Virus record (IMG/VR): IMGVR_UViG_3300047173_000017
Length of the DNA: 54,428 bases
Strand: one strand, 5' to 3'
Origin: a virus
Every line of letters begins with the position of its first letter. The first letter of the stretch is position 1. The notes under the pieces were generated by a model. That model worked only from the letters and a program-made list of their open reading frames with translations. It searched no databases and was not told the origin of the DNA. The position numbers were made by a program, and so were the translations under genes. This document shows, piece after piece, positions 149 to 51,454 of this stretch.

Positions 149-358
149 TCATCGTTCTACCTCACCTTCTGGGACGCACCGCATGTGCGCGTCGAGTTTG
201 CGAACCGGCTCACCTTCGGCCGGGTGATTGAAAACGTAGTCGAGATTTTCCTTCGCGCGCTGGCACAAGGCCAGGGTCGCGAAGCGTTTTTGATTCAGCA
301 CCCAGACGCCGCTGGGGTCGTGCCAGGCGATCAACAGGACGAAGATAAGAGTGGTCAT
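149..358 (-). CDS. Hypothetical small protein (69 aa) with hydrophobic N-terminus
   Basis: ORF track. ATG at 358 lies 1 nt after the stop of the upstream gene (360-362). N-terminus is MTTLIFVLLIAW. Member of the co-oriented leftward operon. Confidence 0.55.
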   Translation of the reverse strand: MTTLIFVLLIAWHDPSGVWVLNQKRFATLALCQRAKENLDYVFNHPAEGEPVRKLDAHMRCVPEGEVER

Positions 359-359
359 G

Positions 360-605
360 TCAGCCGCGGACGGTGGTCAGTTCGACCCGGCCGTGCCAGG
401 CGTGGAGAGTCTGGACGCCGCCAAGCTCGACGTGCAAAAAATCCGCAATCTCTTCGTGGTACATGCCGACGGCGGCGCACTGGTGCACCGCGTCCTCGAT
501 CTTCTCGGCCATTATGAAATTCTCTGATTCAATCTGAAGGTCGTACTCGATCGCCTTGCCGTTGTTGACGCAGCGCGCTGCAAACCAGGTCCGGTAAAGG
601 TTCAT
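360..605 (-). CDS. Hypothetical protein (81 aa)
   Basis: ORF track. Its ATG (605-603) overlaps the TGA (604-602) of the upstream gene as ATGA. Non-repetitive composition. Confidence 0.6.
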   Translation of the reverse strand: MNLYRTWFAARCVNNGKAIEYDLQIESENFIMAEKIEDAVHQCAAVGMYHEEIADFLHVELGGVQTLHAWHGRVELTTVRG

Positions 606-1279
606 AGATCAAGGCTCCGTTGTGTGGCGTGTGGGGTCCAGGTCGTCGGGTTCTGAATCGAGTCGAGTGCTTCCGCGTTGCACGCGGCGCAACCCGTGTT
701 GCGCTTCCAGTTCTGCGCGAGGTTCGTGCTGTCCGCAGACGCCAGTGGCCACCGCTCGCCGGCCTGGCCGAGCATCCGCAGGCCGTGAATCCAGGGAAGC
801 CTGGCGTGGCGCTTCGATAGCGCATTGAACGCCTCGTCCATGCGCCGGCACCAGTCGTCGTTGCCGACCTGCCAAAATTCCGCGCTCGAGCCAAAGCAAA
901 CGCGAGGGAATTGATCGGCCAGTTCGAGCAGATAGTCGATGGGCAGGGACAGATGCCAGACCGGAGCGCCGAGGTTTCCGTAAGGCCACCGACTGACCAT
1001 CTGCCGCTGCTCGAAGGCGGACCCGCCGATCACGTCGGGGATGATCGCCCAGTGCGGGTGATGCAGGATCGGGTCGAGCCACTTGATGTAACCGGCTTCG
1101 TCGAATGGCGTGTGCTGAGTGAAGGCGCTGAAGGCGCCGCTGTCGAACATGATCGACGAGGCAATCAGCAGGCAGGTCCGAAGGTCGTCCGGCCTGGCGT
1201 AGCTGACACAGAAGTTCCGGCCGGCGAGGCGAATCAGCTGCTCGCGCGGGGTCAGCGGGGTGCCGTGGTAATGGATCAC
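602..1279 (-). CDS. tRNA-guanine-transglycosylase superfamily / DpdA-like protein (225 aa); function tentative
   Basis: GTG start at 1279. Motif IMFDSGAFSAF resembles the catalytic DSGGFQ loop of TGT-family enzymes, and a later SADSTNLAQNW follows. Size fits short phage DpdA proteins. Assignment from motif memory only. Confidence 0.6.
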   Translation of the reverse strand: MIHYHGTPLTPREQLIRLAGRNFCVSYARPDDLRTCLLIASSIMFDSGAFSAFTQHTPFDEAGYIKWLDPILHHPHWAIIPDVIGGSAFEQRQMVSRWPYGNLGAPVWHLSLPIDYLLELADQFPRVCFGSSAEFWQVGNDDWCRRMDEAFNALSKRHARLPWIHGLRMLGQAGERWPLASADSTNLAQNWKRNTGCAACNAEALDSIQNPTTWTPHATQRSLDL

Positions 1280-1306
1280 AGTGTCAGTCGTAGCAGTGGT
1301 CGAGGA

Positions 1307-1534
1307 TCATCGCGCGAGCATGTCAGGATCGGGCAGCACGGTGACGTCCAGGCCCAGTTTCTCGGCGAGCTCGAGGTCGCGTTCGGTCAGCGTCTTTACC
1401 GCGATGCGGCCGTCGGCCAGGCGCCGCTCGCCGCCGCCGCGCGCAAGCTCGGCGATGATGCGAGCTGGTTCGTTGAGCGGGTAGATTTTCTTCTGGCCGA
1501 ACACGTTTCGGTAGCAGACTTGCATTGAGATCAT
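1307..1534 (-). CDS. Hypothetical protein (75 aa)
   Basis: Internal ATG of ORF 1307..1879. ATG (1534-1532) overlaps the TGA (1533-1531) of the upstream gene. The upstream part of the long ORF is Arg/Pro-rich shadow sequence. Confidence 0.6.
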   Translation of the reverse strand: MISMQVCYRNVFGQKKIYPLNEPARIIAELARGGGERRLADGRIAVKTLTERDLELAEKLGLDVTVLPDPDMLAR

Positions 1535-2133
1535 GCTGTCACCCTGTTGGTTTTTGACAGTCGAGCGACGGCAATCAGCCAGTCGCGAAAAGGTATCGGG
1601 GTCGCGGCGCGCTCCGGTCGCGTGACTTCCGGGCGCCAGCCAGGCTCCCCTTTCTTCAGCCGACCGCCGCCATTGCGCCGGCCGGAGTTCGTTATCAGGT
1701 GGGTCGACGGGCCGATGCTCAACGGAATCACCGGCAAGTCGTTCGGCTCGACGCCGACGATGTAGATCCATGTCGGTTTGCGCGCGCGGTGGCCGACCCA
1801 GTTCTGATCTATCGGCATCGTCCAGCCACCGAAGCGGTCGCGCCCCTCGCCAGGCCGAGGCATGTTGCACGCCTTCCATAGCTTAGAAAACGCGGGATGC
1901 TCGAGCGCGCCGCCGCAGATGCGGACGCACGCGACGGCGTGGATCGCCAGGTCCTTCTCGGATTCCGGCGCGGTCGATAGGTGCGACATCGCGCCCCACA
2001 AGCGGCACGGCGGGTGCGCGACGACCGGATACCGGCCGTGGTAGTTCCTGGCGTCGCGCACCGCGTCCCACGGGTCGACGTCGGGCAGGCCGAAGTAGCA
2101 CCCGCCCGTGTTGACGTAGAGCGCAGCGATCAT
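1531..2133 (-). CDS. Miniature DNA C5-methyltransferase-like protein (200 aa); function tentative
   Basis: ATG 2133 overlaps the upstream stop (ATGA). Ordered motifs: LYVNTGG (I-like), DPWDAVRDARNY (II-like), HPPCRLWGAMS (IV-like PC), ALEHPAFS (VI, ENV-like), GHRARKPTWIYIVG (VIII, RxR-like), TRPERAATPIPFRDW (IX-like). Confidence 0.6.
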   Translation of the reverse strand: MIAALYVNTGGCYFGLPDVDPWDAVRDARNYHGRYPVVAHPPCRLWGAMSHLSTAPESEKDLAIHAVACVRICGGALEHPAFSKLWKACNMPRPGEGRDRFGGWTMPIDQNWVGHRARKPTWIYIVGVEPNDLPVIPLSIGPSTHLITNSGRRNGGGRLKKGEPGWRPEVTRPERAATPIPFRDWLIAVARLSKTNRVTA

Positions 2134-2321
2134 CGCGGCTGCAGTTCGTCGGACGTCCCGAGCGCGTCGAGCAGCCGCGCGAAGCGGTCCGAGCGGCCGA
2201 GGTCCTTGTACGGGACCAGGCCTCGAGCGGACCGCCAGACAAGCCAGCGGTGGTTGTCGCACCACACGATGACCTGCCACTGGCCCATGTGGATCTCGGA
2301 CGCTGCGCCGATGCTTACCAT
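2130..2321 (-). CDS. Hypothetical protein (63 aa)
   Basis: Internal ATG of ORF 2130..2615, overlapping the stop of the upstream gene by 7 nt. An alternative ATG lies at 2288. Confidence 0.5.
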   Translation of the reverse strand: MVSIGAASEIHMGQWQVIVWCDNHRWLVWRSARGLVPYKDLGRSDRFARLLDALGTSDELQPR

Positions 2322-3972: not shown

Positions 3973-4102
3973 CTACAATGCCGGCGGTCCAGCGCAATTG
4001 CGCGCGCCGACGTGGCGCTGGCCGCGGCCCATTCATCGTGGCCGTCCGAGCCTCACCGGATGGCGCGCGCCTGGCGCGCATCGGCGTAACCAGGCTCCAA
4101 TA

Positions 4103-4696
4103 ATGCCGCGCGCGTCCCGAGTCGACCCGCGTCGCGAGACGTTCTGCCGGCTGTACCTGAAGTATTTTGGTCTGCCGGGTGCGGGCAAGCGCGCTGCCCA
4201 AGAGGCGAAGTACAGCCTGAAGAACACGGGCATCGCCGGCTACCTGCTCGCTCAGCCCTGGATTCAGAACCGAATCAACCAGCTCATGCTCGAGGGGTTC
4301 GCGCGCGATGCGATGACCCCGCAGGAGATCGTCGCGCGCATCGCCAGGCTGGCCAGGCGTGACGTCCGGGCGCTGTTCACCGCGCAGGGCGACCATATCC
4401 TGCCGCACCAGCTGGACCCGGACATCGCCGGCGCGATCGTCGGCCTGGACACAGAGCTCAACTTCGGCGCCGACGGCGCGCCACCGACCGCGGTGCGGAA
4501 GTACCGGCTGGTCAATCCATTGCCTGCGCTTCGGGCGCTGGCCGAGATCCAGGGGATGCTCGAGCCGGCATACGAGGGGCGAGGACAAGGCCTGGGCGAT
4601 CGGCTGCAGCGCGCTCGCGCCAGGATCAGGGACGCGCAGCGCGATGCTGTCGCGATCGAGGGAACCTCCAAGGAAAAGCCAGATGGAAAGCATTGA
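4103..4696 (+). CDS. terS: Terminase small subunit (Terminase_2-like)
   Basis: Starts at MPRASRVD. Pattern RRETFCRLYL...AAQEAKYS...GYLLAQPWIQNRINQLM...TPQEIVARIARLARRDVRALF...LPALRALAEIQGML follows the conserved layout of PF03592-type small terminases. Confidence 0.75.
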   Translation: MPRASRVDPRRETFCRLYLKYFGLPGAGKRAAQEAKYSLKNTGIAGYLLAQPWIQNRINQLMLEGFARDAMTPQEIVARIARLARRDVRALFTAQGDHILPHQLDPDIAGAIVGLDTELNFGADGAPPTAVRKYRLVNPLPALRALAEIQGMLEPAYEGRGQGLGDRLQRARARIRDAQRDAVAIEGTSKEKPDGKH

Positions 4697-4973
4697 AGCG
4701 GTCCAGCCTGCCAACGCGCTCGACCACGAAGAGCGCGACCGCGCCTTCACCGCCAGGCTGCGCGAGCTCATCAAGGCGCATACCGGCCGCGACGACCATT
4801 TCGTTCTGCTCTACTGGCAACCGATGCGCCACGGTCATCGGTACGTGGCCAGCTGCGACCCGCGAGAGCTCAAGGCGCTGGCGACCTGGATCTACAGCGA
4901 TCTCGCGCCCGAGCTCGAGGCGAAGATCCGGATTGGCGGCGTGATGCTGGTGCCTGACGGGACGGTGCGATGA
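4683..4973 (+). CDS. Hypothetical protein (96 aa)
   Basis: Internal ATG (MESIEAV...) of ORF 4359..4973. 14-nt overlap with terS. Confidence 0.6.
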   Translation: MESIEAVQPANALDHEERDRAFTARLRELIKAHTGRDDHFVLLYWQPMRHGHRYVASCDPRELKALATWIYSDLAPELEAKIRIGGVMLVPDGTVR

Positions 4974-5059
4974 ACGCGCTGCTGTGGCTGGTGATGATCG
5001 TTGGCGTGTTCGGCTTCATTGCTTACATTCTCGACAAGATTCTGGGGCCACCGCGATGA
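4970..5059 (+). CDS. Micro-ORF, 29-aa hydrophobic peptide (MNALLWLVMIVGVFGFIAYILDKILGPPR), not in the ORF track
   Basis: Hand translation. ATGA overlaps with both neighbours (4970-4973 and 5056-5059). Confidence 0.4.
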   Translation: MNALLWLVMIVGVFGFIAYILDKILGPPR

Positions 5060-5346
5060 CCTACGAGGTCATTCGCACGCGCGACGGCGTGATGGGCCTG
5101 GTCGACACGACCGGCAAGAATTACCCCCGCTGCACCTGTGGCGGGTTATCGACGCATGGTTGCGACTGGAATGGGTGCGAGGCGCAGCTGTGCGATTTCT
5201 GCCGGGTGCCGTTCGGCCCGGACCTGGACCTGTGTCCGCGGCATGAGCGGATTCGGGTGGAGCTATCCAATGAAGGGCAAACCGAGGGAACCAACGATGG
5301 AACGAGGGATTCTGGGCGCGGTGCTGGGCCTGGGGATGCGGCCTAG
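5056..5346 (+). CDS. Cys-rich (zinc-binding-like) small protein (96 aa)
   Basis: Internal ATG (MTYEVIRTRDG...). Cys-rich segment: CTCGGLSTHGCDWNGCEAQLCDFC...CPRH. Confidence 0.6.
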   Translation: MTYEVIRTRDGVMGLVDTTGKNYPRCTCGGLSTHGCDWNGCEAQLCDFCRVPFGPDLDLCPRHERIRVELSNEGQTEGTNDGTRDSGRGAGPGDAA

Positions 5347-5743
5347 CCTGCTGAAGCTACCGCCAGGCAATGTCGGGACGCTGCTGTGGCAGCTGCAGTC
5401 GGACGAGGTCGGGGTGCGGATCGTCGACCAGCTGTGGGAGTTCAGTGGCCAGCTTGATGAGCTGGTGCTTGACGGGGTCGTCGCCGGGCCGAATCGGGTG
5501 GACGAGGTCTGGACGATGGACGGGAATTACAATCTCGTCGACCGCTCGTTCGTGGGCGCCGGCTTCACGGTGCGGCGGTACGGCAAGGATTTCGTGCCGC
5601 GGTTCAGCCCGGCCGATCCTAAGATCCTCATCCTGCCGGCCTGCACGCGCGCCTCGATCGTCGTCAACAGTGGCCGCGCGATCCGGTTCGACATCAATGT
5701 GCGCGGGATTCAGGAACACGACTTCAGGGGGATGCGCGCATGA
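5297..5743 (+). CDS. Hypothetical protein (148 aa); start ambiguous
   Basis: ORF 5138..5743. Candidate starts at 5270 (GGAG upstream), 5297 (GAGGGA upstream) and 5336. All overlap the previous gene. Confidence 0.55.
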   Translation: MERGILGAVLGLGMRPSLLKLPPGNVGTLLWQLQSDEVGVRIVDQLWEFSGQLDELVLDGVVAGPNRVDEVWTMDGNYNLVDRSFVGAGFTVRRYGKDFVPRFSPADPKILILPACTRASIVVNSGRAIRFDINVRGIQEHDFRGMRA

Positions 5744-5937
5744 TGCCGATTCCTCTGTCCGACCTGGTCTGCGGCATCTGCAACCGCCGGTTCGAGTTCG
5801 GGGAAGAGGCGATCGTGCGCCCGGTCCTGGTTCGCACCGGCCGTGAATCCCGCCCGTGGGTCACGGAATTGACCCCGCAAGCCGACATCGTGCACTCGGA
5901 CTGCATGGGGGTGCCTCTTGCCAACATCGGGCCGTAG
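5740..5937 (+). CDS. Hypothetical small protein (65 aa) with CGIC...HSDC
   Basis: ORF track. ATGA overlap at the start. Confidence 0.55.
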   Translation: MMPIPLSDLVCGICNRRFEFGEEAIVRPVLVRTGRESRPWVTELTPQADIVHSDCMGVPLANIGP

Positions 5938-6388
5938 TCGAATCCTGCTGTCCGACCTGCCGCTCGCCGCACGGGACCAGGCACTCAGCCGCGCCGGCGC
6001 CGTGCGCGAGGCCCGGAAAATCCCGCAGCCGGTCAACCGCACGCTCGAGACGAAGTTCCGGCTGGCCTGCGTCGCGCACGGTCTGCCGGCGCCGGCCGAG
6101 CAATTCCAGGTCCACGAAAGCCGGAAGTGGCAGTGGGATTTCGCCTGGCCGTGGTTGCGGATCTGCGTGGATCTGGACGGCGGCATCTACACCGGCGGGG
6201 CGCATAGCCGCGGTGCGCGAATCGAGAAGGACCACGAAAAGCGCAACGCGGCGGCTGCTGACGGCTGGACGGTTCTTCTGTTCGGCCCGAAAGCCGTTAC
6301 CAGCGCCTCGTTCGTCGAGGTCCTGCGCCTGGCAATGACCATGCGCCGCGAAGGCCGGTTCGCTACTGGTCCAGCCAGGGGTCCCTAA
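5918..6388 (+). CDS. Vsr/DUF559-like (restriction-endonuclease-fold) nuclease
   Basis: TTG start. WQWDFAWPWLRICVDLDGGIYTGGAHSRGARIEKDHEKRNAAAADGWTVLLF matches the D...D/E-x-K core layout of DUF559/Vsr-type endonucleases. Confidence 0.65.
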   Translation: MPTSGRSRILLSDLPLAARDQALSRAGAVREARKIPQPVNRTLETKFRLACVAHGLPAPAEQFQVHESRKWQWDFAWPWLRICVDLDGGIYTGGAHSRGARIEKDHEKRNAAAADGWTVLLFGPKAVTSASFVEVLRLAMTMRREGRFATGPARGP

Positions 6389-35872: not shown

Positions 35873-38800
35873 GTGGCCGACTGGCAGCGCGTCGACCAGG
35901 TCGCGAAGAACGACGCCGGTCAATACATGGCGCTGGTCGGCGGGCAGTGGCAGCCGGCCGAGGGTGGAGCGAAGAACGACGCCGGGCAGTACATGGCGCT
36001 GCTGTCCGGCGGCGGGATCGACCAGTCCGTGCAGGACCCGCGCGACGCGCAGGCGCAGGGCAAGGCGGGCATCCAGCTGCCGCCGGAGCAGCAGGGCCCC
36101 ACCGAGCAGCCGCAGGGCGCGGTGGGCCTGCAGAACACGCAGCCTGGCTACTTCATGGGCGAGGGCAGCAAGGCGCTTGCCCGCGGCCTGCTCGACGTGA
36201 AGCAGATGCCGCAGGCGATCAAGGTGTTTGCCTCGTCCGAAAACGTTAAGATCGCGCGCGACAAACTGGCCGCGTGGAACCAAATCGACGACGGCACCAC
36301 GCCGCCGCCGGCGCAGCCGCAGCCTGGCGACCCGGAGATCCAAGGAACCGAGGGCCGCACGCAGTCCTGGGAATACGCGCAGGCCACGCCGCAGCAGCGC
36401 ATCGACATGCGCGCGAAGGTCCTCAAGTCCATTTCTGATAACCAGGACGACCAGCGCGCGGCGATCAAGGTCTGGCAGGAGTTCGCCGCCCAGAAGCAGA
36501 AGCTCACCGGCCGGGTTCCGAGCCTGACCGACGTCCACGACGCAACCGACTTTCGGGACTACCTGACGTCGAGCTTGGGCGAAGGTGCGCTGCCGCTGGC
36601 CGCGATGGTCACGGCGTCCGCTATCCCACGGGTGGGGTTCGGCCTGGTGTCGGCGATCATGGCCGGGACGTCTGTTGCCGGCGGCACGGGTGCCGCGCTC
36701 GAGTCGGCACAGACGCCGGCGATGGGTGGGCAGCACGTCGAGGGGCGGTGGGTTCCAGGCCAGGCGGCGACCATCCAGCCGAACGACGCGCAGGCCGTGA
36801 TGGATCAGCGCCGGGCCGGCATCGGCCTTGCCGCCGGCGCCGAGACGGCGATGGGCGCCCTAAGCCCGACGCAGGCCGTGGGGCGCGACGCGCTGGGCGC
36901 GGCGGTGCAGGGCATCAAAAGCACCGTCGGGCGCGTGGCCGCGAAGGCGGGCCTGGGCGCTGCCGACATGGGCGTGCAGAACGTGGCGCAGTACGGGATG
37001 GACACGGCGGCGCAGGGCGAAACTCCGACCCTTGGCGGCGCTGCTGACGCGCTGACGACCGGCATCATCACGGGCGCTGCGATCGCCGGAGCGCACGGCG
37101 CGATGCACGCGCGCAAGGAAAACGCCGCCAGGGTCGCGGCGGACCAGGACGCGCAGATCCGCGCCGCGGCGCAGACCGTCGCCGACCAGGGCGCGGCGCC
37201 GGCGGATCAGATGCGCGCCGCGGCGGGGATGCAGCCAGGGGAAATGCCGGGTGGTCCCGGCGAGCCTCCGGCGCCAGCCGCGCCTGGCGCGCCCGAGGTC
37301 GTCGGTTCCGGCGGGGCGCCTACTGACAAAACCGCCGAAAGCCCTTCCGGCAGTTCTGGCAGTACCCCTCCCGCCCATGTTGACCCTGCGGTGGCGCAGC
37401 TGGAACAGGCGCGCGACCTGGCCAAGAACAGTCCGAGCGAGACGGTGCGCGCCGCGGCGCAGAAGATCATCGACGCGGACGAGCAGCGCAAGGCGGCGTC
37501 GACCGAGGCCGAGCGCCTGGCCGGCGAGGTCGGCCACACGATCGACGCGCTGCGGGACGCGCGCGACGCCGGCAACGAACCGCTGGCCACCGAGCTCGAG
37601 ACGGCGCTGGCCAAGCTGCAGAAGCAGGCCGCGAAGGCGCGCGAGGCGGCGGGCGAGGCGCCACCGAAGGGCGGCATCGAGGTCAAGGAAGGGACGGTCG
37701 AGCATATCGAGGTCCCGCCGGTCGACGAGGAAAAGGTCGGCAACGAGCGCGCCGCAGCGGCGGCGGCAGAGGACAAGGACGAGCGCGAGACGTACTACGG
37801 CACCGACCAGCCGAAGGACGCGCTGACCGGGTCGGACGCCGACCGAGCGGCGTCGCGCGGCCGGTCGCCGCTGCTCAAGGGGTTGCGGGACGCCGGCGGC
37901 ATCCGGACAGACCAGCTCAGCGAGATCGGCCTGGACCGCAAGCGGGCCGACGGCAAGCGGCAGTCCTGGTCGATCGGCCAGGGTCAACCCCTGTTCCACA
38001 AGCAGGGCGCGCTGGCCGACGATTCCCTGGCCGAGCACCTTCACCAGCACGGGTATCTGGCCGACGAGTCGGACGTCGACGGCGCGCATGAAATGGTCCG
38101 GCAGGAGTGGGAGAATCCCGGATCGGTCAAGCCGCTGCGCGAGCGCGACCGCCAGGCCGAGGACGCGCTGGCCGCGCGCTACGACCGGGAGCGCGACCAG
38201 GAGCTTGCCGAAGAGGCTCGAGCCATCGGCATCGACCCGACTGGCCGAACGTCCGAGGATTTGCAGAACGCCGTCATCGCGGCGCATCATGCGGACTGGA
38301 CTCACCTGGCGCAGCACGGTCTGACGCCAGACCACGCTGCCGATTGGGCTGAGGTTCACCGGGCCGCGCACCGCGACCTGGCGGCGACCGAAGAGGCAGG
38401 ACGCCAGTACCCCGCGCATGGCGACGACTTCATGCGGGCAATCAGGGAGATCAACGGTGGGCTGGACTCCGAGCGCGAATCTAATCAGGGCGGCGATCAA
38501 CACCAGTCCGGACCAGGCGGCGAGGCTGGCAAACCAGCAGTACGTGGCGAGTCTGCGGAAGCCGCCGGCGCAGATCGCGGCACCGGGCAAGAGCCAGCAG
38601 ATCGGGCCGGCAATGGTCAACAAGGCCGTGATGCCGGCGAACCCGGCGGCAACGCTCAGGCCGGACCCGAGGTTCCTGACGGGGGGGCTGAACGCCGAAC
38701 AGCGACCGCAGCCCAAGGGCGAGGACCTTTAGACGAAGCGGGCATCCGGCGCTTCGCGCGCGCCGCGCAGGCCGCAGCACAGAAGGCCGGCTTCGATCTC

Positions 38801-41800
38801 AAAGAGTTGTTCCGGAAGGGTTACGTCCGGATCGTCGATTCAAGCAACGCGTCACACCCGCTCGCGTCACACCCTGGGGTGTCGGCGCTTTACGTTCCTC
38901 CGATCCGCGGCGCCGACGGCAAGATGGAGCGCCGCGGCTACGTCGAGATTTACGCCGACCGCGCGGACCCGCAGCGCATCCCTGAATTGATCTTGCATGA
39001 GGTCGGCGACCACCTTGGCCTGCTGGGCCTGGGCCGGGACGGCTACGACAAACTGCTCAACGAGATCCTGGACAACCGCAACGCGCCGGACGTTCAACGA
39101 ACCTGGCGCGAGGTCGCGCAGAATTACCCGGATCTACCCGAGGGCGGCCGCGCGTTCTTGCGCGAGGTATCGGCGCACCTGGCCGAGACGGGCGCGGACC
39201 GCGGCACCACCAGGAAGCTGCTCGACCACGCGCAGGCGATGGCCTACAAGACGCTCGGCATCCGGCTCGGCCGCACCGGCGACCTGGTGCGAGGCCTGGC
39301 CGCGGCGATGGCACGCTCGATCCAGAACAGCCGGTTCGACATCGCGAAGGAACGCATGGCCATTCCCGAGAGGGAAGGCGAGAGCATTCGGATCGCGCGC
39401 GAGGCGAGCGCTGCCGGCCGGGCGGCGTGGGCAGCGGCGAACGGCGGCGCGGCGGCGAAGCAGACCGAAGCCAAGCTGCGCGGCCCGCTGTCGGCCGACC
39501 AGGCTCGAGCGCACCCGAGCATCGGACCCGTGATGGCCGCTGCCGATTCGCTCGGCCTGTCGGCGCTGCACGAAGCGACCGACTTCAACGTGCAAGAGGC
39601 GCACCACGGCGACGATGCGGCGACGGTCCATATCGGCACCGACGGCCGCGTGAAGATCACTCTTTGGGGCGCGCATAACGAGCTGGTGGATTCCGGCGAC
39701 CCGCGCGACCTGTCGCAAGCGCAACGCCTGGTCTATCACGAACTAATGCACGTCATGGATGCGGCGAACCGCGGCGGCATCTACTCGGCGCACCCGGATC
39801 TGTGGATTGATCACAACCGCGCCGGCGACATCGTCGGGATCGGCGACGCGGCGCGCGAGCTCATCCAGCTGTACCGCAACAACGACCTGCTGAACAAGAT
39901 GCTGCACTACCCGCTGCACACCGACTACTCCGGCATGGGACCGACCGAGCTGCCGAAGGAATTGTTCGCTCAAGCACAGACCGCGTATCTCGCGAAAACC
40001 GCCAGGGAGATTATCGAACGTGAAGCACCGAACGCAGCAAGGTATCTCAGGATTGCCCTCGAGCAAGCGCGTGGCGCCAAAGCCCCGCTTACAGAATCCG
40101 ACCGCCAGATTGCCAGGACCGCCTTCGCAGCCGCAACCCGACGCGGAACAGATGAGCGATCCGCAACAGCTGCCGATTCTGGCCGACCCGGCGGCGGCGG
40201 GGATGCCGGGGGTCGACCTGGGTTTGACGGAATAGCAGCGTCGCAGCGCACCGAGCGCGAGCGCGATCCGATCCTCGACGTGCGGCCGGCGCCAATCTGG
40301 AAGTCCGCGCTGCACGACGCTGTCGCGTCGATGCCGGACAAGAAAATGCCGGGCTCGTCCTGGCTGGCCGAGATCAAGGGCCTGGTCAACAAGGGCAAGG
40401 TCAAGGCCGAAGAGCTGCGCTGGGTCGGACTGGACGACGCGTTGAAGGCTGCGCCTGGGAAGCTGTCGCGCGACGACGTGGCGAAGTGGATCGCCGACAA
40501 CGGCGTGAGGCTCGACGAGGTTCGGTACGGCGACACTAGAAGAGAGCAGCGCGATGCCCTCAAGGCTGCTCGCAACCGCGTGCTGGATGTTTTGAAGGAA
40601 GCGCGCGGCTTCATGGAATCCGGCGGCGTCGACCCCGACGAAATGGCGTCCGCGATCGACGCATTGCAGAACCATAAGCCGCAGTCCGGCGTCGACGATC
40701 CGCAGCTGACGAAAGCATACGAGCTTCTTCGCGAGCACGCGCCGCCCGGCTACGACTTCAACACGATCAACGACGCGCACGACGCTCACGCGCGGGCAAT
40801 CGAGGATTGGGACGCCGCGAGGATCGCCGACAGCTCGCAATCGGCCACGCGACACGCTAAGTACACGCTACCAGGCGGCGAGAATTACCGCGAGACGGTG
40901 CTGACGCTGCCGTCGAGAAATGGAGAGGCCATCGCGCGGTTAACACAACAACGTCGCGCTGAGTCGGAAAAAATCCGGGAGGCGCTTATTGCGGTTCGTA
41001 GAAGCAACATCACTCCCAACGAATATGCGGAGATCAAGTTGGCCGCTACCGGCCGGATAGACGAGATTGACCGCAATCTGATCGAGCTCGCGAAGGAATC
41101 GGTCCGTCGTGCAGAACCACACTTCGAGCACAACGGTCACTGGCCGGGCGTCGAGAATCCTGTTGCCCACCTTCGCACGACCGACCGCGTCGACGCCGAA
41201 GGCAAGCGCAACCTGCACGTCGAGGAATTTCAATCTGACTGGGGCGAGCAGGGTCGCAGCAAGGGATTCTCTGACAAGAGCAAGGTCGCCGACGCCGAGC
41301 GCCGCCTTGAAGCGTTTGATGCCGAGACAGAATCCTTGAGGGGCGCGATCCTCGATCAAATGAAAGAGCTTGCGAAGAACGGCCAGCGCGATATCCTTAC
41401 AATGTCTGAGGAAGATAGTCAGCGGTGGCATGACCTGGACAGACAGCAAGCGCACATCACTGACGAGCGGTGGGCGCAGCGCGCACCATTGAATGATGAG
41501 TTGAGTCGCGCCAGAAGCGGCCTTCCGCTCGCCCCGTTCGTCGGGAACACTCAGCACTGGGTCGCGCTGCTGATAAAGCGGGCGATCCGGATGGCCGCAG
41601 AAGGTGGCTACGACCGCGTCACCTGGTCGCGCGGCGATCAGATCAACAACGTCCTTTCTATTTCGAGAGTCGTCAGGAAAATCTCCTGGGACGCTGAACC
41701 GAAGCGCAATCTGCGGCGCGTCGTCATGGACCTGACCCAGTACCGCGATCCGATGGAGCTCGTCGTCGACAACAGGAACGGCGAGATTGCACAGGTCAGC

Positions 41801-44800
41801 GACGATTCTCAAAGTGCCTGGGTCGGCAAAAATCTCAGCGAGGTCGTCGGCAAGGAAATGGCCGACAAGATCATGAGCGACAAGGTCGAATACGGCTCGC
41901 TCGAGGGCGACGGTCTGAAGGTCGGCGGCGAGGGCAACCGCAAGTTCTACGACCAGGTCGTGCCGAACGTCGCGAACGACGTTCTAAAAAAATTCGGCGG
42001 CGGCCGGGTCCGCGATGTCGACTATGGCAACGGGCCGGCGTCGGTCGAGCGGTACAGGGTGTTCTTCGACGATGACGCAGTGAACAACGGCGAGCGCGGC
42101 GGCTGGTATATCGAGGACGAAAACGGACCGCGGGAAAGTAGATTCGTTACCCGCGAAGAGGCGCAGGCACAAGCGAACGAGTACAACGCGGACGAGGACC
42201 AGTCGACGGCGATCGGTCGGCAGCAAGGCTTCGACATCACGCCGGAAATGCGCGCGCAGGCCAGCGAGGCAATGCCGATGTTCTCGAAGCGCGAAGCCCC
42301 TCGAGCGCGCGATCCGATTCTCGACACGCGGCCCGGCACCGACGAGCGAGATCAGAATTTCCGCCGCTGGTCGAACGACGCGCCGATGGTTCGTTCTGCT
42401 GACGCAGACAACTACCCGTTCAAGTCTGGGCAGAAGTTCGTCGCCGAGGCGTTCCACGGAACCAAGCGGCCCGACCGCGTCGGGTCCCGGTTTCGCAAGT
42501 CCCGCGCAACATCCGGGCCGATGTCGTTCTTCACCAGCGACCCGCAGCTCGCGTCCGGCTACGCGGCGAGCAAGAACGACACGTCGTTGCAGCGCGAGGA
42601 CCAGGGTTACGAGACATGGTTTCGCTACAAGCCGAAGGGCGCGCGCACCGCTGTCAACATCGACCGGGCCTGGTATCACCTGGACCGCGAGACGCAGGAC
42701 AAGATCGCGCGGATCGCGCCGACGCTGCATGAGGACGACGACGGCAACCTCGTCTCGACGCCTGGCAAAACGTCGGGCAACGGCGGCTACGACCAGGCGC
42801 TTGCCGAGACGCAACGCGGCTGGGACAAGCGCGGCAACCCGCTGAAGGCGCTGGTCGAGGCGTGGCTAAATTCCGGTTCGATGTTCGACCGCGAGGAAGA
42901 TTTCGGCAAGCTGCTCGAGGCTGCGGGGATGCCGAAGGGCAGCGTGGAAATGCACGACCCGCACGCTCAGTACCCCGCGGTCTACAAGACGTTCGTTCAC
43001 ATGGACCGGCCGCTGGTCACGACCGACATTCCGCCCGAGGTCCGCGATGCGCTGAACACTGCGGCGAAGCGCGACCGATCCAGTCCAGTGCAGGGTGCGA
43101 CCGGGTGGGACAAGGACTCGCAGACCCTGCGCGACTGGGTCCGAGACTTCAACAGCGGCGACGACGCGGCGCGCTACCTCTGGACGTTGATACCGGAAAA
43201 GGTGACGAAGGTCCTGCGCTCGCTCGGCTACGATGGCATCGTCGACCGCAGCGGCAAGGGCGGCGGACCGGAGCATCCGGTCTATATCCCGTTCGACGAG
43301 AATCAGGTCAAGTCCGCGCTCGGCAACAAGGGTACGTTCGACCGCGACTCGTCTGACATCGCAGCGTCGCAGCGCACGCCGAAGGACGACATCGGGCTGA
43401 CCTACCCCGGCGCGAAGATGCCTGGCGGCGGTGGCACGCCACCGCGCCGGCCTGGCGCGCCAGGTCCAGCTGCGACGCCGCCGGGTGGCACGCCACCGCT
43501 CGCGCAGCGCAACCCGTTCTACCGGCGCATCTGGGATTCGCCTTTCTTGCAGAAGGCGCGCGACCTTGCCGGCAATATCTTCCGCGACATCCAATCGAAA
43601 ACTTCGCCGATGACCGCCACGTCGACGAAGGAATTTCAGGCGATGGCCAAGGACTACGCCAACGCGATGCGCCAGGGCCGGCAGAAGTTCGCCGAGTGGT
43701 TCGACATCCTCAACCGGAATTACAACGCCGACCAGCTCAGGAGAATGTGGGAAGCCGGCGACGAAGAAAACGACATGCGCCGCGAGCAGCGGCTGAACGG
43801 CACGCCACTCGATCCGAGCAAGGGCCTGGCGTCGTTGCCGAAGGACCAGCGCGACGTGATGGATTTCATGTCGGCCTACGGCACGAAGCTGCTGGCCGAG
43901 GCGAAAGCACTCGGCATGTACGAAGGCGAGGGCGTCGACTACTGGGTCCCGCGCACCGCGGCGCGCATCGGCGCTGACGGCGACTACGAACCTCTGCTGC
44001 CCGGAGCTCGAGGCGAGGGTGGCGGATCGCCGCGCACGAAGTCCAAGAACCTGACCGGCCGCAATTGGGACACGACGGCCGAGGCGGAAGCCGCGCTGCA
44101 GGGACGCGAGGGCACGGGGGCGAAGTTCATTCGGGACATCCGCACGATGCCGCTGGCCATGCGCCGCCTCGAGGAAGCAATCGCCGGCCGGCGCCTGGTC
44201 GATAGGGTGCTCGAGGAATCGCAGAAGATGGCGCTTGACCCTGCCGCGTTCGTGCCGGCGAGCGACCATCCGGCGTTCAAGGTCTACCAGGCGGACATCA
44301 ACGACCCGACCGCGCCGTGGAAGGTCACGACGATGCGGATTCCCAAGGAAGCGAAGGGCCCGCTCGACGCCGTGCTGTCGAAGGCGCCAGGGGATGCCTA
44401 CAAGGGGCTGCTGGCCCTGAAGAATTGGGGCGTGGGCAACATCATGTTCAGCCCATTCATCCACTTGGGCGTCGAGCTGGGTCGTGCTGCGCCGGTCATG
44501 CGCGGCAAGATGCTGACGCTCGGTTTCTGGAAGGACGGTGCCGCGATGCTGCGGAACCCGGACCTGCTGCGCCAGGCGATCGGCGAGGGGTACGTGAAGA
44601 TCGGCCGGCAGAACCTGTCCGAAGATATGTCCTCGATGGAGCGCGAACCGGAGCTGCATCCAGGCCGAGGTCTGACGGCGCAAGTCGCCGGCCTGGCCGC
44701 TCGGCCGTTCGGCAAGAACGCGCGCCAGGCCGCGATGCGCGGGGTCGACCGGATCGGCGACTTCGTGCACGGCACGTTGCTGTGGGACCGGATCGCCCAG

Positions 44801-46189
44801 CTGCAGGCCGGCATTTACCTGACGACCCGCAAGGCGGCGATCGCGAAGGGGATGCAGCCTCGAGTCGCCGGGATCGTCGCGGCGCATATCGCCAACCGCT
44901 ACGCGGGCGCGCTGCCGCCGGAGTCGATCAGCAGCGCCGGCCGCAAGGTGGCGAACCTGCTGCTCTTCTCGAGGTCGTTCACTTTGGGCAACCTGGGCGT
45001 CATGAAGGACGCGCTGACCGGCTTGCCGCAGGACGTGCGCGCGCAGATCGAGACAGAGTTCGGCCAGGCGCAGCTGGTGAAAGCGACGTCCTACTCCCGT
45101 CGCAAGGCGTTCGCCGGGGTGATCGCGGACGTGGGGATGATGGCCGCGCTCAACGCGGTGGCGCAGTCCGGAATCAGCGCGCTGAACAAGCAGCAACAAG
45201 ATCCGGAGTGGGACAAGCAGCTGCTGTCGAAGCTCAAGTTCTTGGGCGCCGAGGGCGTGGGTGGCGTCGTCGGCATGGGAGCGCTCGGCGTGCCTGGCAT
45301 GGTCGCCGGCGCGCTCGGCGCTGGATGGCTGGCCGACCAAAAAGCTGCCGTCGCGCAGTCGCACGACCTGGTGGACTCGATGGTCCGGGGCATGAAGTCC
45401 GCCGCGATGGACCCGGTCCACGCGGTGCTGCATCCGTTCGACACGCTCGAGTCGATGTCGCCGACCTACCGCAACGAGCCTGGCAAGGGCGACCGCATCC
45501 TGGTCGGCCACGAGCCGGACGGTACGGCAATCTACGTGCGGTTGCCGTTCGGCAAGGTGGCCGAGGAAATCAAGGGATGGGCCACGCGCCCGGCGTGGCG
45601 GGGGCCGGATGGAACGCCGTCGATGCTCGAGCAGAAGAGCTCGACGCTGGTGCACCCGCTGCAGTACGCCTACACGAACGACACGGGGTTCGGCCGCAAG
45701 CTCTACAAGGACAACGACGACGTACTGGTCAAGGGCGGGAAGATTGCCGGCGAATTGATGAAGGAACAGGTGCCGGCCGATTCGATCGCTTCCGCCTATC
45801 GGATGCTACAAGGCAAGGGGCAACCGATGGACCCCGAAAAATTCCTGGGGCCGCTCCTGGGGTTGACGTTCTCGAAGGGGGCGCCTGGCGGGGAAGCGTC
45901 CGGCGAGCTCTTCCGCGAGGAAAGCCGGCACAAGGCCGACGTCGCCGACGCGGCGCCGGACATCAAGCAGGCGATCAAGGACGGCGACCAGGCCACCGCC
46001 AAGCGGCTGATGGACGCGGCAGGCATGACGGCCGAGGAACGCCGGTCGATGATTAAGCACACGCTGCACCCGGAGACATACGTCAGCGCGAGGGCGCTGC
46101 GGCAGTTCCAGCAAACGGCTACACCCGAAGAAAAGGCCAGGATGGCCAGCGCGCGCGCGGCGCGCCAGCCCGCGCAACCGGAGCAATAA
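35873..46189 (+). CDS. Giant 3,438-aa multidomain (polyvalent-type) virion protein candidate
   Basis: Uninterrupted ORF from a GTG start. HELMH at 39737-39751. ART-like FHGT...FFTSD...YIPFDENQVKSALGN module. HVEEFQSDWGEQGR module. Repeated RDPILD-x-RP and IAASQRT linkers. Hydrophobic Gly-rich C-terminal third. Confidence 0.9.
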   Translation: MADWQRVDQVAKNDAGQYMALVGGQWQPAEGGAKNDAGQYMALLSGGGIDQSVQDPRDAQAQGKAGIQLPPEQQGPTEQPQGAVGLQNTQPGYFMGEGSKALARGLLDVKQMPQAIKVFASSENVKIARDKLAAWNQIDDGTTPPPAQPQPGDPEIQGTEGRTQSWEYAQATPQQRIDMRAKVLKSISDNQDDQRAAIKVWQEFAAQKQKLTGRVPSLTDVHDATDFRDYLTSSLGEGALPLAAMVTASAIPRVGFGLVSAIMAGTSVAGGTGAALESAQTPAMGGQHVEGRWVPGQAATIQPNDAQAVMDQRRAGIGLAAGAETAMGALSPTQAVGRDALGAAVQGIKSTVGRVAAKAGLGAADMGVQNVAQYGMDTAAQGETPTLGGAADALTTGIITGAAIAGAHGAMHARKENAARVAADQDAQIRAAAQTVADQGAAPADQMRAAAGMQPGEMPGGPGEPPAPAAPGAPEVVGSGGAPTDKTAESPSGSSGSTPPAHVDPAVAQLEQARDLAKNSPSETVRAAAQKIIDADEQRKAASTEAERLAGEVGHTIDALRDARDAGNEPLATELETALAKLQKQAAKAREAAGEAPPKGGIEVKEGTVEHIEVPPVDEEKVGNERAAAAAAEDKDERETYYGTDQPKDALTGSDADRAASRGRSPLLKGLRDAGGIRTDQLSEIGLDRKRADGKRQSWSIGQGQPLFHKQGALADDSLAEHLHQHGYLADESDVDGAHEMVRQEWENPGSVKPLRERDRQAEDALAARYDRERDQELAEEARAIGIDPTGRTSEDLQNAVIAAHHADWTHLAQHGLTPDHAADWAEVHRAAHRDLAATEEAGRQYPAHGDDFMRAIREINGGLDSERESNQGGDQHQSGPGGEAGKPAVRGESAEAAGADRGTGQEPADRAGNGQQGRDAGEPGGNAQAGPEVPDGGAERRTATAAQGRGPLDEAGIRRFARAAQAAAQKAGFDLKELFRKGYVRIVDSSNASHPLASHPGVSALYVPPIRGADGKMERRGYVEIYADRADPQRIPELILHEVGDHLGLLGLGRDGYDKLLNEILDNRNAPDVQRTWREVAQNYPDLPEGGRAFLREVSAHLAETGADRGTTRKLLDHAQAMAYKTLGIRLGRTGDLVRGLAAAMARSIQNSRFDIAKERMAIPEREGESIRIAREASAAGRAAWAAANGGAAAKQTEAKLRGPLSADQARAHPSIGPVMAAADSLGLSALHEATDFNVQEAHHGDDAATVHIGTDGRVKITLWGAHNELVDSGDPRDLSQAQRLVYHELMHVMDAANRGGIYSAHPDLWIDHNRAGDIVGIGDAARELIQLYRNNDLLNKMLHYPLHTDYSGMGPTELPKELFAQAQTAYLAKTAREIIEREAPNAARYLRIALEQARGAKAPLTESDRQIARTAFAAATRRGTDERSATAADSGRPGGGGDAGGRPGFDGIAASQRTERERDPILDVRPAPIWKSALHDAVASMPDKKMPGSSWLAEIKGLVNKGKVKAEELRWVGLDDALKAAPGKLSRDDVAKWIADNGVRLDEVRYGDTRREQRDALKAARNRVLDVLKEARGFMESGGVDPDEMASAIDALQNHKPQSGVDDPQLTKAYELLREHAPPGYDFNTINDAHDAHARAIEDWDAARIADSSQSATRHAKYTLPGGENYRETVLTLPSRNGEAIARLTQQRRAESEKIREALIAVRRSNITPNEYAEIKLAATGRIDEIDRNLIELAKESVRRAEPHFEHNGHWPGVENPVAHLRTTDRVDAEGKRNLHVEEFQSDWGEQGRSKGFSDKSKVADAERRLEAFDAETESLRGAILDQMKELAKNGQRDILTMSEEDSQRWHDLDRQQAHITDERWAQRAPLNDELSRARSGLPLAPFVGNTQHWVALLIKRAIRMAAEGGYDRVTWSRGDQINNVLSISRVVRKISWDAEPKRNLRRVVMDLTQYRDPMELVVDNRNGEIAQVSDDSQSAWVGKNLSEVVGKEMADKIMSDKVEYGSLEGDGLKVGGEGNRKFYDQVVPNVANDVLKKFGGGRVRDVDYGNGPASVERYRVFFDDDAVNNGERGGWYIEDENGPRESRFVTREEAQAQANEYNADEDQSTAIGRQQGFDITPEMRAQASEAMPMFSKREAPRARDPILDTRPGTDERDQNFRRWSNDAPMVRSADADNYPFKSGQKFVAEAFHGTKRPDRVGSRFRKSRATSGPMSFFTSDPQLASGYAASKNDTSLQREDQGYETWFRYKPKGARTAVNIDRAWYHLDRETQDKIARIAPTLHEDDDGNLVSTPGKTSGNGGYDQALAETQRGWDKRGNPLKALVEAWLNSGSMFDREEDFGKLLEAAGMPKGSVEMHDPHAQYPAVYKTFVHMDRPLVTTDIPPEVRDALNTAAKRDRSSPVQGATGWDKDSQTLRDWVRDFNSGDDAARYLWTLIPEKVTKVLRSLGYDGIVDRSGKGGGPEHPVYIPFDENQVKSALGNKGTFDRDSSDIAASQRTPKDDIGLTYPGAKMPGGGGTPPRRPGAPGPAATPPGGTPPLAQRNPFYRRIWDSPFLQKARDLAGNIFRDIQSKTSPMTATSTKEFQAMAKDYANAMRQGRQKFAEWFDILNRNYNADQLRRMWEAGDEENDMRREQRLNGTPLDPSKGLASLPKDQRDVMDFMSAYGTKLLAEAKALGMYEGEGVDYWVPRTAARIGADGDYEPLLPGARGEGGGSPRTKSKNLTGRNWDTTAEAEAALQGREGTGAKFIRDIRTMPLAMRRLEEAIAGRRLVDRVLEESQKMALDPAAFVPASDHPAFKVYQADINDPTAPWKVTTMRIPKEAKGPLDAVLSKAPGDAYKGLLALKNWGVGNIMFSPFIHLGVELGRAAPVMRGKMLTLGFWKDGAAMLRNPDLLRQAIGEGYVKIGRQNLSEDMSSMEREPELHPGRGLTAQVAGLAARPFGKNARQAAMRGVDRIGDFVHGTLLWDRIAQLQAGIYLTTRKAAIAKGMQPRVAGIVAAHIANRYAGALPPESISSAGRKVANLLLFSRSFTLGNLGVMKDALTGLPQDVRAQIETEFGQAQLVKATSYSRRKAFAGVIADVGMMAALNAVAQSGISALNKQQQDPEWDKQLLSKLKFLGAEGVGGVVGMGALGVPGMVAGALGAGWLADQKAAVAQSHDLVDSMVRGMKSAAMDPVHAVLHPFDTLESMSPTYRNEPGKGDRILVGHEPDGTAIYVRLPFGKVAEEIKGWATRPAWRGPDGTPSMLEQKSSTLVHPLQYAYTNDTGFGRKLYKDNDDVLVKGGKIAGELMKEQVPADSIASAYRMLQGKGQPMDPEKFLGPLLGLTFSKGAPGGEASGELFREESRHKADVADAAPDIKQAIKDGDQATAKRLMDAAGMTAEERRSMIKHTLHPETYVSARALRQFQQTATPEEKARMASARAARQPAQPEQ

Positions 46190-47151: not shown

Positions 47152-47654
47152 ATCCGCTCTCGATCATTGAGCTGGTGGTCATGGTCGGGATCGTCGCCGG
47201 CGCGGCGTGGCTGGGTGGCGACGTGGAAAAGGCGCACCTGAACGCGGAGTTCGACAAGGAACGTGCGGCGATCCGTGCCGAGGTCGACGCGCAGCGCGGC
47301 CGTGCGGACCGCGCCGAGGCGCTTGCAAACGGCAAAGACCAGGAGGTTCTAAATGCTCAGAGCACTGCTGCGAAACAGCGCGCGACTGACGCTGCTGCTA
47401 TGGCTGATTCTCTTGCCCGCTTGCACCAGCGTCTGTCCGATCTCACCGCCAGCGTCGGGACTGGTGCTGCCGCCGTTCCCGTATCAAAGGGCGAATCCTG
47501 CGCCGCCGCAGTCACCCGACTCGCCGACGGCGTCGGCAAGCTGGCGGGTGCTGGTGGACTCCTTGCAGCAACCTACGACGCCTGCTCCGACCAGCGCCGC
47601 GCCTGCGAGCGGTGGGCCGACATCGTCGAAGAGCAAGTGAAGGCGTCGCGTTAG
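47148..47654 (+). CDS. Rz: i-spanin (Rz-like)
   Basis: TTG start overlapping the upstream stop. N-terminal TM IIELVVMVGIVAGAAWL, then a charged coiled coil. Contains an embedded lipoprotein ORF. Confidence 0.75.
   Translation: MNPLSIIELVVMVGIVAGAAWLGGDVEKAHLNAEFDKERAAIRAEVDAQRGRADRAEALANGKDQEVLNAQSTAAKQRATDAAAMADSLARLHQRLSDLTASVGTGAAAVPVSKGESCAAAVTRLADGVGKLAGAGGLLAATYDACSDQRRACERWADIVEEQVKASR
47353..47640 (+). CDS. Rz1: o-spanin (Rz1-like lipoprotein) embedded in the +1 frame of Rz
   Basis: Signal peptide plus lipobox LLLWLILLPAC, with a Pro-rich mature part. Lies entirely inside 47148..47654. Confidence 0.75.
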   Translation: MLRALLRNSARLTLLLWLILLPACTSVCPISPPASGLVLPPFPYQRANPAPPQSPDSPTASASWRVLVDSLQQPTTPAPTSAAPASGGPTSSKSK

Positions 47655-47863
47655 CTGATCTTGCGGTGCTGGAATTGGCCGCGGACGTGCGTGCCGAAGT
47701 GCTTGCCGACTGACGGCGCGCTGATGAGCGCCTGGTGCTGCGCCGGCTCGACGCCGGCGTATTCGTACAGACCGCCGTTCGTAAATTCAACGTGCATCGT
47801 CTTGCTGTCGGGGTCGTAACCGACCGACTTGATGTTGCTGCTGATGACCGGCTTTCGTTCCAT
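47651..47863 (-). CDS. KTSC-domain protein (70 aa), last gene of the leftward block
   Basis: ISSNIKSVGYDPDSKTMHVEFTNGGLYEYAGVEPAQHQALISAPSVGKHF matches the KTSC-domain pattern. Its stop (47651-47653) overlaps the Rz stop (47652-47654). Confidence 0.7.
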   Translation of the reverse strand: MERKPVISSNIKSVGYDPDSKTMHVEFTNGGLYEYAGVEPAQHQALISAPSVGKHFGTHVRGQFQHRKIS

Positions 47864-47865
47864 CC

Positions 47866-51321: not shown

Positions 51322-51454
51322 GCAGCTGCTCCCGTGCGTGGCGGATGATGGCGCGCAGCCGCAGCGCGTGCGAGATCCGCCAGCGGCGCAGCTGCTCGCG
51401 GATCTCGGCCTGGTGGCGCGCCACCGCGTAGTCGATCAAGGCCTCGAGGCTCAC
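51302..51454 (-). CDS. Doubtful small ORF (50 aa) between recT and the exonuclease gene
   Basis: GTG start overlapping the recT stop (GTGA). 20-nt overlap with the exonuclease gene. Confidence 0.35.
   Translation of the reverse strand: MSLEALIDYAVARHQAEIREQLRRWRISHALRLRAIIRHAREQLHDRSGH

Follow-up and report, generated by a model that had tools for sequence, protein, structure and literature searches.

A large family of very small phage proteins with a predicted C5-cytosine methyltransferase-like fold

Introduction

The fold of the C5-cytosine DNA methyltransferases can be kept while its function changes: DNMT3L is a non-catalytic regulator, and Dnmt2 has a tRNA substrate. Here, we describe a protein of 200 amino acids encoded in the IMG/VR virus record IMGVR_UViG_3300047173_000017, a stretch of 54,428 nucleotides that is referred to below, at its full length, as the window. 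The predicted fold and the motif order of this protein resemble those of the C5-methyltransferases, in a drastically shortened frame. We tentatively propose, as the most probable of the readings considered, that it is a minimal enzyme, acting on its own, which descends from the catalytic domain of these methyltransferases and carries out the S-adenosylmethionine (AdoMet)-dependent methylation of cytosine in DNA.

The canonical AdoMet contacts, as found in M.HhaI and in the phage DNA cytosine C5-carboxymethyltransferase CmoX, are two stacking aromatic residues, a Glu in motif II, an Asp in motif III, and an Asn or Arg in motif X; in CmoX, the adenine is sandwiched by Phe25 and Phe48 (PMC12783734). 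Some filamentous Pf prophages carry canonical dcm genes, as accessory genes, in their early region (PMC7549136). A relative of the present protein, Gp8 of the Rhodobacter microvirus Ebor, was called a "putative DNA methylase" on the basis of HHpred alone, with an E-value of 2.3e-8 to a viral methylase (PMC11980548). In the literature searched, this label is the sole mention of the family, and no paper characterising it was found: the family has been recognised once, in passing, and never characterised.

Predicted fold and family membership

The gene is encoded on the minus strand; it starts with the ATG at 2133 and ends with the stop codon at 1531-1533, and its product reads MIAALYVNTGG...NRVTA:

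1531..2133, minus strand: target coding sequence, a 200-amino-acid C5-methyltransferase-like protein (open reading frame and translation; PHROG 12600 family)

The AlphaFold2 model of the protein has a predicted local distance difference test score (pLDDT) of 93.1 and a predicted template modelling score (pTM) of 0.89, and that of a typical family member (P0009) has a pLDDT of 94.4. When the two models were compared with the PDB by Foldseek, the 50 top matches of each were, without exception, C5-cytosine DNA methyltransferases; these included M.HaeIII, M.HhaI, DNMT1/3A/3B/3C, ZMET2, DIM2, and MET1, with probabilities up to 0.99-1.00. No other class I or Rossmann-type methyltransferase was present among these 100 top matches, and since the far more numerous other Rossmann-type methyltransferases never appear, the similarity, though distant, is specific to the C5-methyltransferases rather than generic. 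Among predicted viral structures, the best matches (template modelling score, TM, 0.5-0.57) were small proteins of 210-250 amino acids, some of them annotated as cytosine or S-adenosylmethionine-dependent methyltransferases, and further matches were the N-terminal domains of large helicase fusion proteins. Six strands are predicted in the target model, versus seven in the class I methyltransferase fold. On the evidence of these models, the predicted fold is C5-methyltransferase-like. The kinship with these enzymes that had been suggested in a preliminary description of the window, made from the letters alone, is supported in fold and motif order, and the structure search yielded neither an unrelated fold nor a confident assignment to another family.

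The protein is a full-length member of PHROG 12600, a family of unknown function (E=4.6e-73; residues 1-197 align with positions 3-198 of the 203-position profile). More than 4,256 homologous clusters were found at 90% identity (E<=1e-3), and an exhaustive HMMER scan of 1.84 billion representatives brought the family to at least 2,234 clusters at 50% identity. The public names that were examined, for example in Xanthomonas, Stenotrophomonas maltophilia, and Burkholderia pseudomallei, are all "hypothetical protein," with Ebor Gp8 as the one exception. The proteins are basic, with a median isoelectric point of 9.4 and 97% of them above 8.

Putative catalytic motifs

Conservation was counted in a 250-sequence family alignment composed of homologues and representatives, to which all the counts below refer. 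The residues H40, P41, P42, C43, E78, H79, P80, S83, Q110, G114, H115, K119, T121, Y124, G127, R175, T178, and P179 are each conserved in at least 95% of the sequences. The six motif strings listed in the preliminary description were all recovered from the translation in the order given there: LYVNTGG (residues 5-11), DPWDAVRDARNY (20-31), HPPCRLWGAMS (40-50), ALEHPAFSKLW (76-86), GHRARKPTWIYIVG (114-127), and TRPERAATPIPFRDW (171-185). The putative catalytic half of this series comprises the following features:

2005..2016, minus strand: HPPC, motif IV with the putative nucleophilic Cys43, residues 40-43 (C43 in 249/250 sequences, P41 in 250/250)

1894..1902, minus strand: EHP, equivalent of motif VI (canonical ENV), residues 78-80 (E78 in 249/250, H79 in 247/250, P80 in 250/250)

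1753..1794, minus strand: GHRARKPTWIYIVG, motif VIII-like strand (beta7), residues 114-127, which aligns with GVPQxRxRvfiiG

1612..1752, minus strand: basic segment of lower model confidence at the place of the target recognition domain (TRD), residues 128-174 (pLDDT 77-89; GWRPE and basic residues conserved)

1597..1611, minus strand: RAATP, motif IX-like (R-x-x-T-P), residues 175-179 (R175 in 240/250, T178 in 247/250, P179 in 244/250)

Profile comparisons by hhalign were made with the single sequences of M.HhaI and M.HaeIII, with the M.HaeIII family, and with 82 diverse phage C5-methyltransferases gathered for this purpose. Both hhalign and HMMER align HPPC with the PPCQ of M.HaeIII and of the phage C5-methyltransferases, and some members of the family carry the canonical "HPPCQxWS" and "IPRKRTWLYIVG." Against the 82 canonical enzymes, the PPC-PPCQ pair, the helix that follows it, motif VIII, and motif IX are aligned in order, with weak statistics; the HMMER matches to canonical enzymes are marginal and limited to the PPCQ-bearing members. 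Glu78, the putative N3-protonating residue, ends the model strand 75-80 and is flanked by G74 and G75 on one side and by S83, L85, and W86 on the other; hhalign places it a few residues off the register of motif VI, and the Asn-Val of the canonical motif is replaced by an invariant His-Pro. The motif VIII strand has the family form GH.A.K.TwLYIvG, in which the Gln and the two Arg of the canonical motif are unconserved and the invariant residues are K119 and T121; PRKR is found at this place in a single member. The motif IX-like "RexTP" aligns with the "RrLTprE" of C5-methyltransferases and is followed by a C-terminal helix (residues 180-192).

Family conservation supports the putative assignment of motif IV, motif VI (Glu78), the VIII-like strand, and motif IX. 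Together with the fold matches of the two models and the existence of members with canonical motifs, this conservation indicates that the motif pattern reflects more than chance.

Putative cofactor site

The N-terminal part of the protein, where a methyltransferase would hold its cofactor, contains two features:

2092..2121, minus strand: LYVNTGGCYF, loop after beta1 at the place of motif I, residues 5-14 (an atypical, Gly-containing variant)

2050..2076, minus strand: DPWDAVRDA, segment resembling motif II at the end of beta2, residues 20-28 (D23, R26, and A28 near-invariant)

A glycine-rich motif I had been read from the target sequence. The string is indeed there, but it is not a feature of the family, whose consensus at this place is LF(A/V)RxDSxYK; the TGG form occurs in 2 of the 250 sequences (the target and P0240), related forms with Gly are found in a few others, and the Gly-rich string is thus peculiar to the target and a small sub-lineage. 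Across the family, the loop is conserved only at Y13 (99%), at a small residue in position 11 (Ser in 95%, or Gly), and at position 6, which is aromatic or Cys. Positions 10 and 14 (D10 and K14) covary, which suggests that they form a structural pair. In the motif II-like segment, position 22 is Trp, Tyr, or Phe in all 250 sequences, and D23 and R26 are found in 241 and 247 of them, respectively. Both positions of the adenine sandwich are therefore kept, with Phe or Tyr at position 6 in 94% of the sequences and one of the three aromatic residues at position 22 in 100%. Because this aromatic pair is kept, acidic residues lie near the ribose position, and the target has Gly-Gly at the motif I positions, AdoMet is taken as the default donor.

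Proposed function

The following sequence of events is proposed. The basic surface of the protein would bind DNA, and a cytosine would be flipped out of it; Cys43 of the HPPC motif (motif IV) would then attack C6 while Glu78 of the EHP motif (motif VI) protonates N3, and a one-carbon group, of which the methyl of AdoMet is the most probable, would be transferred to the activated C5. For the cofactor, a remodelled pocket is envisaged, lined by S/G11 and Y13 of the beta1 loop, by the two aromatic residues (positions 6 and 22), and by two acidic ones, D20 and D23. Phages and satellites may carry the protein as an orphan modification enzyme that shields their double-stranded or replicative-form DNA from host restriction. 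We infer, in this proposal, the DNA substrate, the AdoMet cofactor, the 5-methylcytosine product, and the anti-restriction role.

Several observations weigh against AdoMet-dependent methylation or against the kinship on which it is built. The target has no match in Pfam (E<=10), PF00145 included, and none of 68 family members matches a relevant Pfam model; likewise, no match was found for the target in NCBIfam, or in the PDB, either with its sequence (even at E=10) or with the 68-member profile. Profile-profile scores are weak, with a best hhalign probability of 17.5% (P=0.0014), and so are the Foldseek scores (E ~2e-3; query-normalised TM 0.26-0.51). With regard to the cofactor site, the family has RxDS in place of the FxGxGG of motif I, and helix A is absent or predicted with only four residues; position 21, which corresponds to the canonical ribose-binding Glu, is hydrophobic (Val, Cys, Ala, or Pro), with acidic residues at 20 and 23; neither model has a secondary-structure element between beta2 and the PC strand, where beta3 and motif III would lie; and no GN motif X exists in the target or in the family consensus. 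This last absence had already been pointed out in the preliminary description, and the target does end after helix 180-192, 21 residues beyond P179. In the catalytic half, ENV has become EHP and QxRxR has become HRAxKxT; the invariant His40, His79, and His115 have no counterpart in canonical enzymes; and the TRD-position span covers about 47 residues between G127 and R175, versus 117 between R155 and R273 in M.HaeIII. No biochemical test of any member was found in the literature searched, and nanopore sequencing of Ebor DNA gave 1.58% 5-methylcytosine, which was not attributed to Gp8 by the authors (PMC11980548).

The weakness of the scores (TM mostly below 0.5, Foldseek E ~1e-3, hhalign probability at most 17.5%) would also suit a protein that is no kin of the methyltransferases, such as a Cys/His hydrolase or another enzyme built on a generic alpha/beta sandwich, in which case the resemblance would be coincidental and the invariant His40, His79, and His115 beside Cys43 could form a Cys-His catalytic set. 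We consider this improbable, given that 100 of the 100 top PDB matches of the two models are C5-cytosine methyltransferases, that five motifs are collinear with those of the canonical enzymes, that intermediate members carry the canonical PPCQxWS, and that an independent HHpred comparison matched the microvirus member with a DNA methylase at E=2.3e-8 (PMC11980548).

Judged from the alignment and the models, the canonical AdoMet pocket appears to be largely gone, and it is because the ribose Glu, the motif III unit, and motif X are lost that "minimal methyltransferase" is offered here as a hypothesis and not as a finding. The remodelling of the pocket and the new invariant His and Lys residues leave real room for a different donor or reaction. 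The protein could keep the fold and the covalent Cys chemistry on a DNA pyrimidine and perform something other than AdoMet-dependent methylation, with a pocket made of Y13, D23, R26, H40, H79, H115, and K119 that binds another donor or none; hydroxymethylation with an aldehyde or folate, the use of an AdoMet analogue such as carboxy-AdoMet, deamination, and removal of a C5 substituent are all options. This alternative, which we regard as rather unlikely, draws on the loss of canonical motifs I, III, and X, on the hydrophobic residue at the ribose-Glu position, and on the several new invariant polar residues around the Cys and the Glu. Without AdoMet, the canonical C5-methyltransferases catalyse deamination, aldehyde addition, dehydroxymethylation, and decarboxylation, which also speaks in its favour. 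A natural precedent for a changed donor exists in CmoX, where carboxy-AdoMet is chosen by one Arg at the motif X position (PMC12783734). Nevertheless, no cofactor-synthesis gene is associated with the family, and since the gene stands alone in single-stranded DNA phage genomes of 4.8-11 kb, any such donor must be a common host metabolite. The retention of the aromatic pair that sandwiches the adenine also argues against a changed donor, as does the Gly-Gly of the target exactly at the motif I place, which suggests that the loop still plays the role of motif I. To our knowledge, moreover, there is no natural AdoMet-independent member of the C5-methyltransferase fold. A descendant of the C5-methyltransferases that is reduced to 160-200 residues, works independently of AdoMet or with an alternative donor, and keeps only the base-flipping and Cys-addition machinery is likewise rather unlikely.

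A degenerate cofactor pocket, in a small and basic protein found in varied genomic contexts, could also point to a catalytically inert factor that binds DNA or protein on a methyltransferase scaffold and acts as a decoy, a regulator, or an anti-defence protein, by analogy with DNMT3L. DNMT3L, however, lost precisely its catalytic motifs, which is the opposite pattern: in the present family, conservation reaches 95% or more at Cys43, Glu78, His79, Lys119, and some 25 further polar or Gly/Pro positions, as in an active-site signature, and an inert role is accordingly improbable. The three alternatives set out in the preliminary description (a minimal methyltransferase, a different C5 chemistry, or a dead binder) remain the right set of hypotheses.

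Distribution and genomic context

Viral and bacterial collections supplied 152 non-identical loci in which the genomic context was compared. Replication initiators (P2 gpA-like and inovirus Rep_trans), integrases, and NinB/NinG are the neighbours seen most often. In microviruses, the gene lies directly upstream of the VP4 replication initiator; in inoviruses, directly upstream of Rep_trans; and in P2/P4-like elements, upstream of gpA. In Mu-like Pseudomonas phages it is placed between the terminase genes, and in the lambdoid nin region, by sequence inspection, between NinB-like and NinG-like genes. It is an accessory gene in all of these. The single-stranded DNA phage genomes that carry it measure 4.8-11 kb. 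Microvirus members are shorter still: in the microviruses H12 and H14, the tblastn match covers only 62-71% of the query. No cluster of neighbour genes is present in more than 22 of the 152 loci. An obligate partner, or a split enzyme similar to M.AquI, was considered and rejected on this ground and because the small open reading frames upstream of the gene are unrelated between elements. The protein has no conserved partner gene and is stand-alone.

Links with DNA modification are recurrent but facultative. Two natural fusions (P0130 and P0168) carry a D12-class N6-adenine methyltransferase domain N-terminal to the family domain, and in a third protein (P0158, 742 amino acids) the family domain is N-terminal and is followed by a weak, sub-threshold match to ParB_N. 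A small amino-methyltransferase of the DPPH type is found about 1 kb downstream in 11 of the 152 loci. An apparent fusion of 548 amino acids to a Cys-rich (CxxxC-type) C-terminal region, at 4509..6155 of locus L029, was not used as evidence: it is probably a frameshift or assembly error, since the last helix of the domain is replaced at the junction by sequence that looks out of frame.

These links bear on the possibility of an RNA substrate. Dnmt2 shows that the C5-methyltransferase fold can act on tRNA, and the very small TRD and the TGT-like gene near the target in the window would fit an RNA (e.g., tRNA) cytosine-5 methyltransferase of this type, which would alter host tRNAs. The fusions and neighbours of the family, however, are DNA methyltransferases, neither tRNA nor RNA-modification genes were seen in its company, and the TGT-like gene accompanies it only sporadically, within a cassette that can be swapped; an RNA-directed role appears quite improbable.

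The DpdA-like neighbour and other modification genes of the phage

In the window, the gene has the following neighbours:

2130..2321, minus strand: upstream gene of 63 amino acids, function unassigned; its stop codon overlaps the ATG of the target (ATGA)

1307..1534, minus strand: downstream gene of 75 amino acids, function unassigned; its start codon overlaps the stop codon of the target

602..1279, minus strand: DpdA/TGT-like gene of 225 amino acids (PHROG 887 "queuine tRNA-ribosyltransferase," E=1.1e-39)

Scans with Pfam, PHROG, and PADLOC gave no family match for the 63- and 75-amino-acid genes, and the PADLOC scan gave no match to any defence-component model for the target or its neighbours. 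The 63-amino-acid gene is not kept beside family members elsewhere; the 75-amino-acid gene is also present in the contigs L001 and L002. The DpdA/TGT-like gene is the next gene after the latter, in the same apparent operon as the target, so that the target is, as had been noted, one small gene away from it. The DpdA-like protein has no match in Pfam or among PDB sequences, and matches PHROG 887 only.

This adjacency could suggest that the target takes part in the 7-deazaguanine (DpdA) pathway of DNA modification to which its neighbour would belong. The adjacency itself stands; a functional link does not, since the neighbour is sporadic across loci and is swapped in near-identical contigs. When all open reading frames of the window and of the first 92 loci were searched, a DpdA-like neighbour was found at two loci of the family only, the window and L042. 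Furthermore, L001 (10824..13381) and L002 (6112..8403), whose contigs are 95-99% identical to the window, keep the target gene and have, in the slot that corresponds to positions 358..1303 (minus strand) of the window, a gene for a Helicase_C+N6_N4_Mtase protein of 763 amino acids instead of DpdA, together with an 89-amino-acid open reading frame in L001. In the window, this slot, which lies two genes downstream of the target, holds the DpdA-like gene and an 81-amino-acid open reading frame (360..605). One DNA-modification gene is exchanged for another at the same slot, and the sporadic presence of DpdA and this swap therefore point to a shared "modification island" rather than to a pathway. 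The annotations of the single-stranded DNA phages Ebor and fSU1 list no Dpd or Que gene, and DpdL, DpdM, and DpdN were identified through other families, DpdM being a DUF3109 protein and DpdL a paralogue of QueD (PMC10516641). A role in the Dpd pathway, the least probable of the readings considered here, is effectively refuted by the distribution of the family. As for the DpdA-like enzyme itself, FolE, QueC, QueD, and QueE were all absent from the subset of window open reading frames that was scanned (the early region); without genes for preQ0 synthesis among these, the enzyme would depend on 7-deazaguanine precursors of the host.

The window also encodes a Mom-like DNA modification protein (52779..53459, minus strand; PF25680, E=1.7e-6; phrog_1384, E=1.5e-36). 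With the Mom-like, the DpdA-like, and the target genes, the phage carries at least three putative DNA-modification genes. Elsewhere in the window, an open reading frame of 3,438 amino acids (35873..46189, plus strand) contains an ART-PolyVal ADP-ribosyltransferase domain (PF18760, E=1.6e-8, residues 2366-2489) and resembles the "polyvalent proteins" of phages and conjugative elements. Genes for a RecT-family annealing protein (51451..52389, minus strand; PF03837, E=7e-19), a KTSC-domain protein (47651..48022, minus strand; PF13619, E=2e-22), and a small terminase subunit (3998..4696, plus strand; PF03592) would fit the complete genome of a tailed phage, about 54 kb in length.

Significance

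If active, a protein of this kind, with 160-200 residues and no separate recognition domain, would make a very small enzyme on the scaffold of the cytosine-5 methyltransferases, from which one could learn what parts of the ten-motif architecture can be dispensed with. The family is very large and is invisible to Pfam and NCBIfam, and it occurs in prophages of Xanthomonas, Stenotrophomonas maltophilia, and Burkholderia pseudomallei. Its presence in microviruses and inoviruses, which have almost no room for accessory genes, suggests that the benefit under selection is strong and general, with escape from restriction as the most likely one. Used as a fusion module, a compact cytosine modifier could also find application in targeted DNA modification. 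Should the cofactor be something other than AdoMet, a new DNA modification chemistry would be at hand, and if an alternative donor or none were used for a different C5/C6 reaction, the DNA-modifying enzymes would gain a new class that even the smallest single-stranded DNA phages carry. For specialists, the interest lies in the small size of the protein, its abundance in the smallest phages, and the question of its cofactor.

Comparison with known systems

The PF00145-type enzymes (M.HaeIII, M.HhaI, and Dcm) are the best fold matches of the protein and the only ones among the top PDB matches of the two models. The two groups share motifs IV (with Pro-Cys) and IX, aromatic residues at both positions that stack the adenine, the basic character of the protein, and the genomic niche of the phage orphan methyltransferases; Glu78 and the motif VIII-like strand are putative, collinear counterparts of motifs VI and VIII. 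They differ in size, with about 200 amino acids for the target versus 320-330 for M.HaeIII and M.HhaI; in the active-site string, which is PCR in the target and PCQ in the canonical enzymes; and in the TRD, with about 47 versus about 120 residues. In addition, the alphaA helix is reduced in the family to a four-residue remnant, and beta3 with motif III and motif X are missing. The protein is not filed as a canonical member, since it stays below the PF00145 threshold, lacks motifs I, III, and X, and does not show ENV or QxRxR in their canonical form.

The two relatives in which the fold was kept and the function changed differ from the present family in what they preserved. DNMT3L is devoid of the catalytic residues that are invariant here, and Dnmt2 keeps all ten motifs, of which I, III, and X are lost or rebuilt here.

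CmoX offers the example of a scaffold used by phages with an altered cofactor, and shares with the target a mechanism based on Cys addition at C6 and an anti-restriction role, both of which are only proposed for the target (PMC12783734). Unlike the target, CmoX keeps the full AdoMet site (the aromatic pair, the Glu, and the Asp) and differs from canonical enzymes mainly by the change of Asn to Arg at residue 350, the motif X position; it is typically encoded with the cofactor synthase CmoA, whereas the present family has neither motif X nor a cofactor gene (PMC12783734).

Finally, Ebor Gp8 belongs to the same family as the target (tblastn E=3e-17), with which it shares HPPCR, LEHP, GHRAEK, and ERERTP, and its gene is immediately upstream of a replication initiator. 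In Gp8 (L010, 4191..4682), which has 163 amino acids, the DxFGGWT insert is missing along with most of the TRD-like segment, and its motifs define what appears, by alignment, to be a still smaller conserved core.

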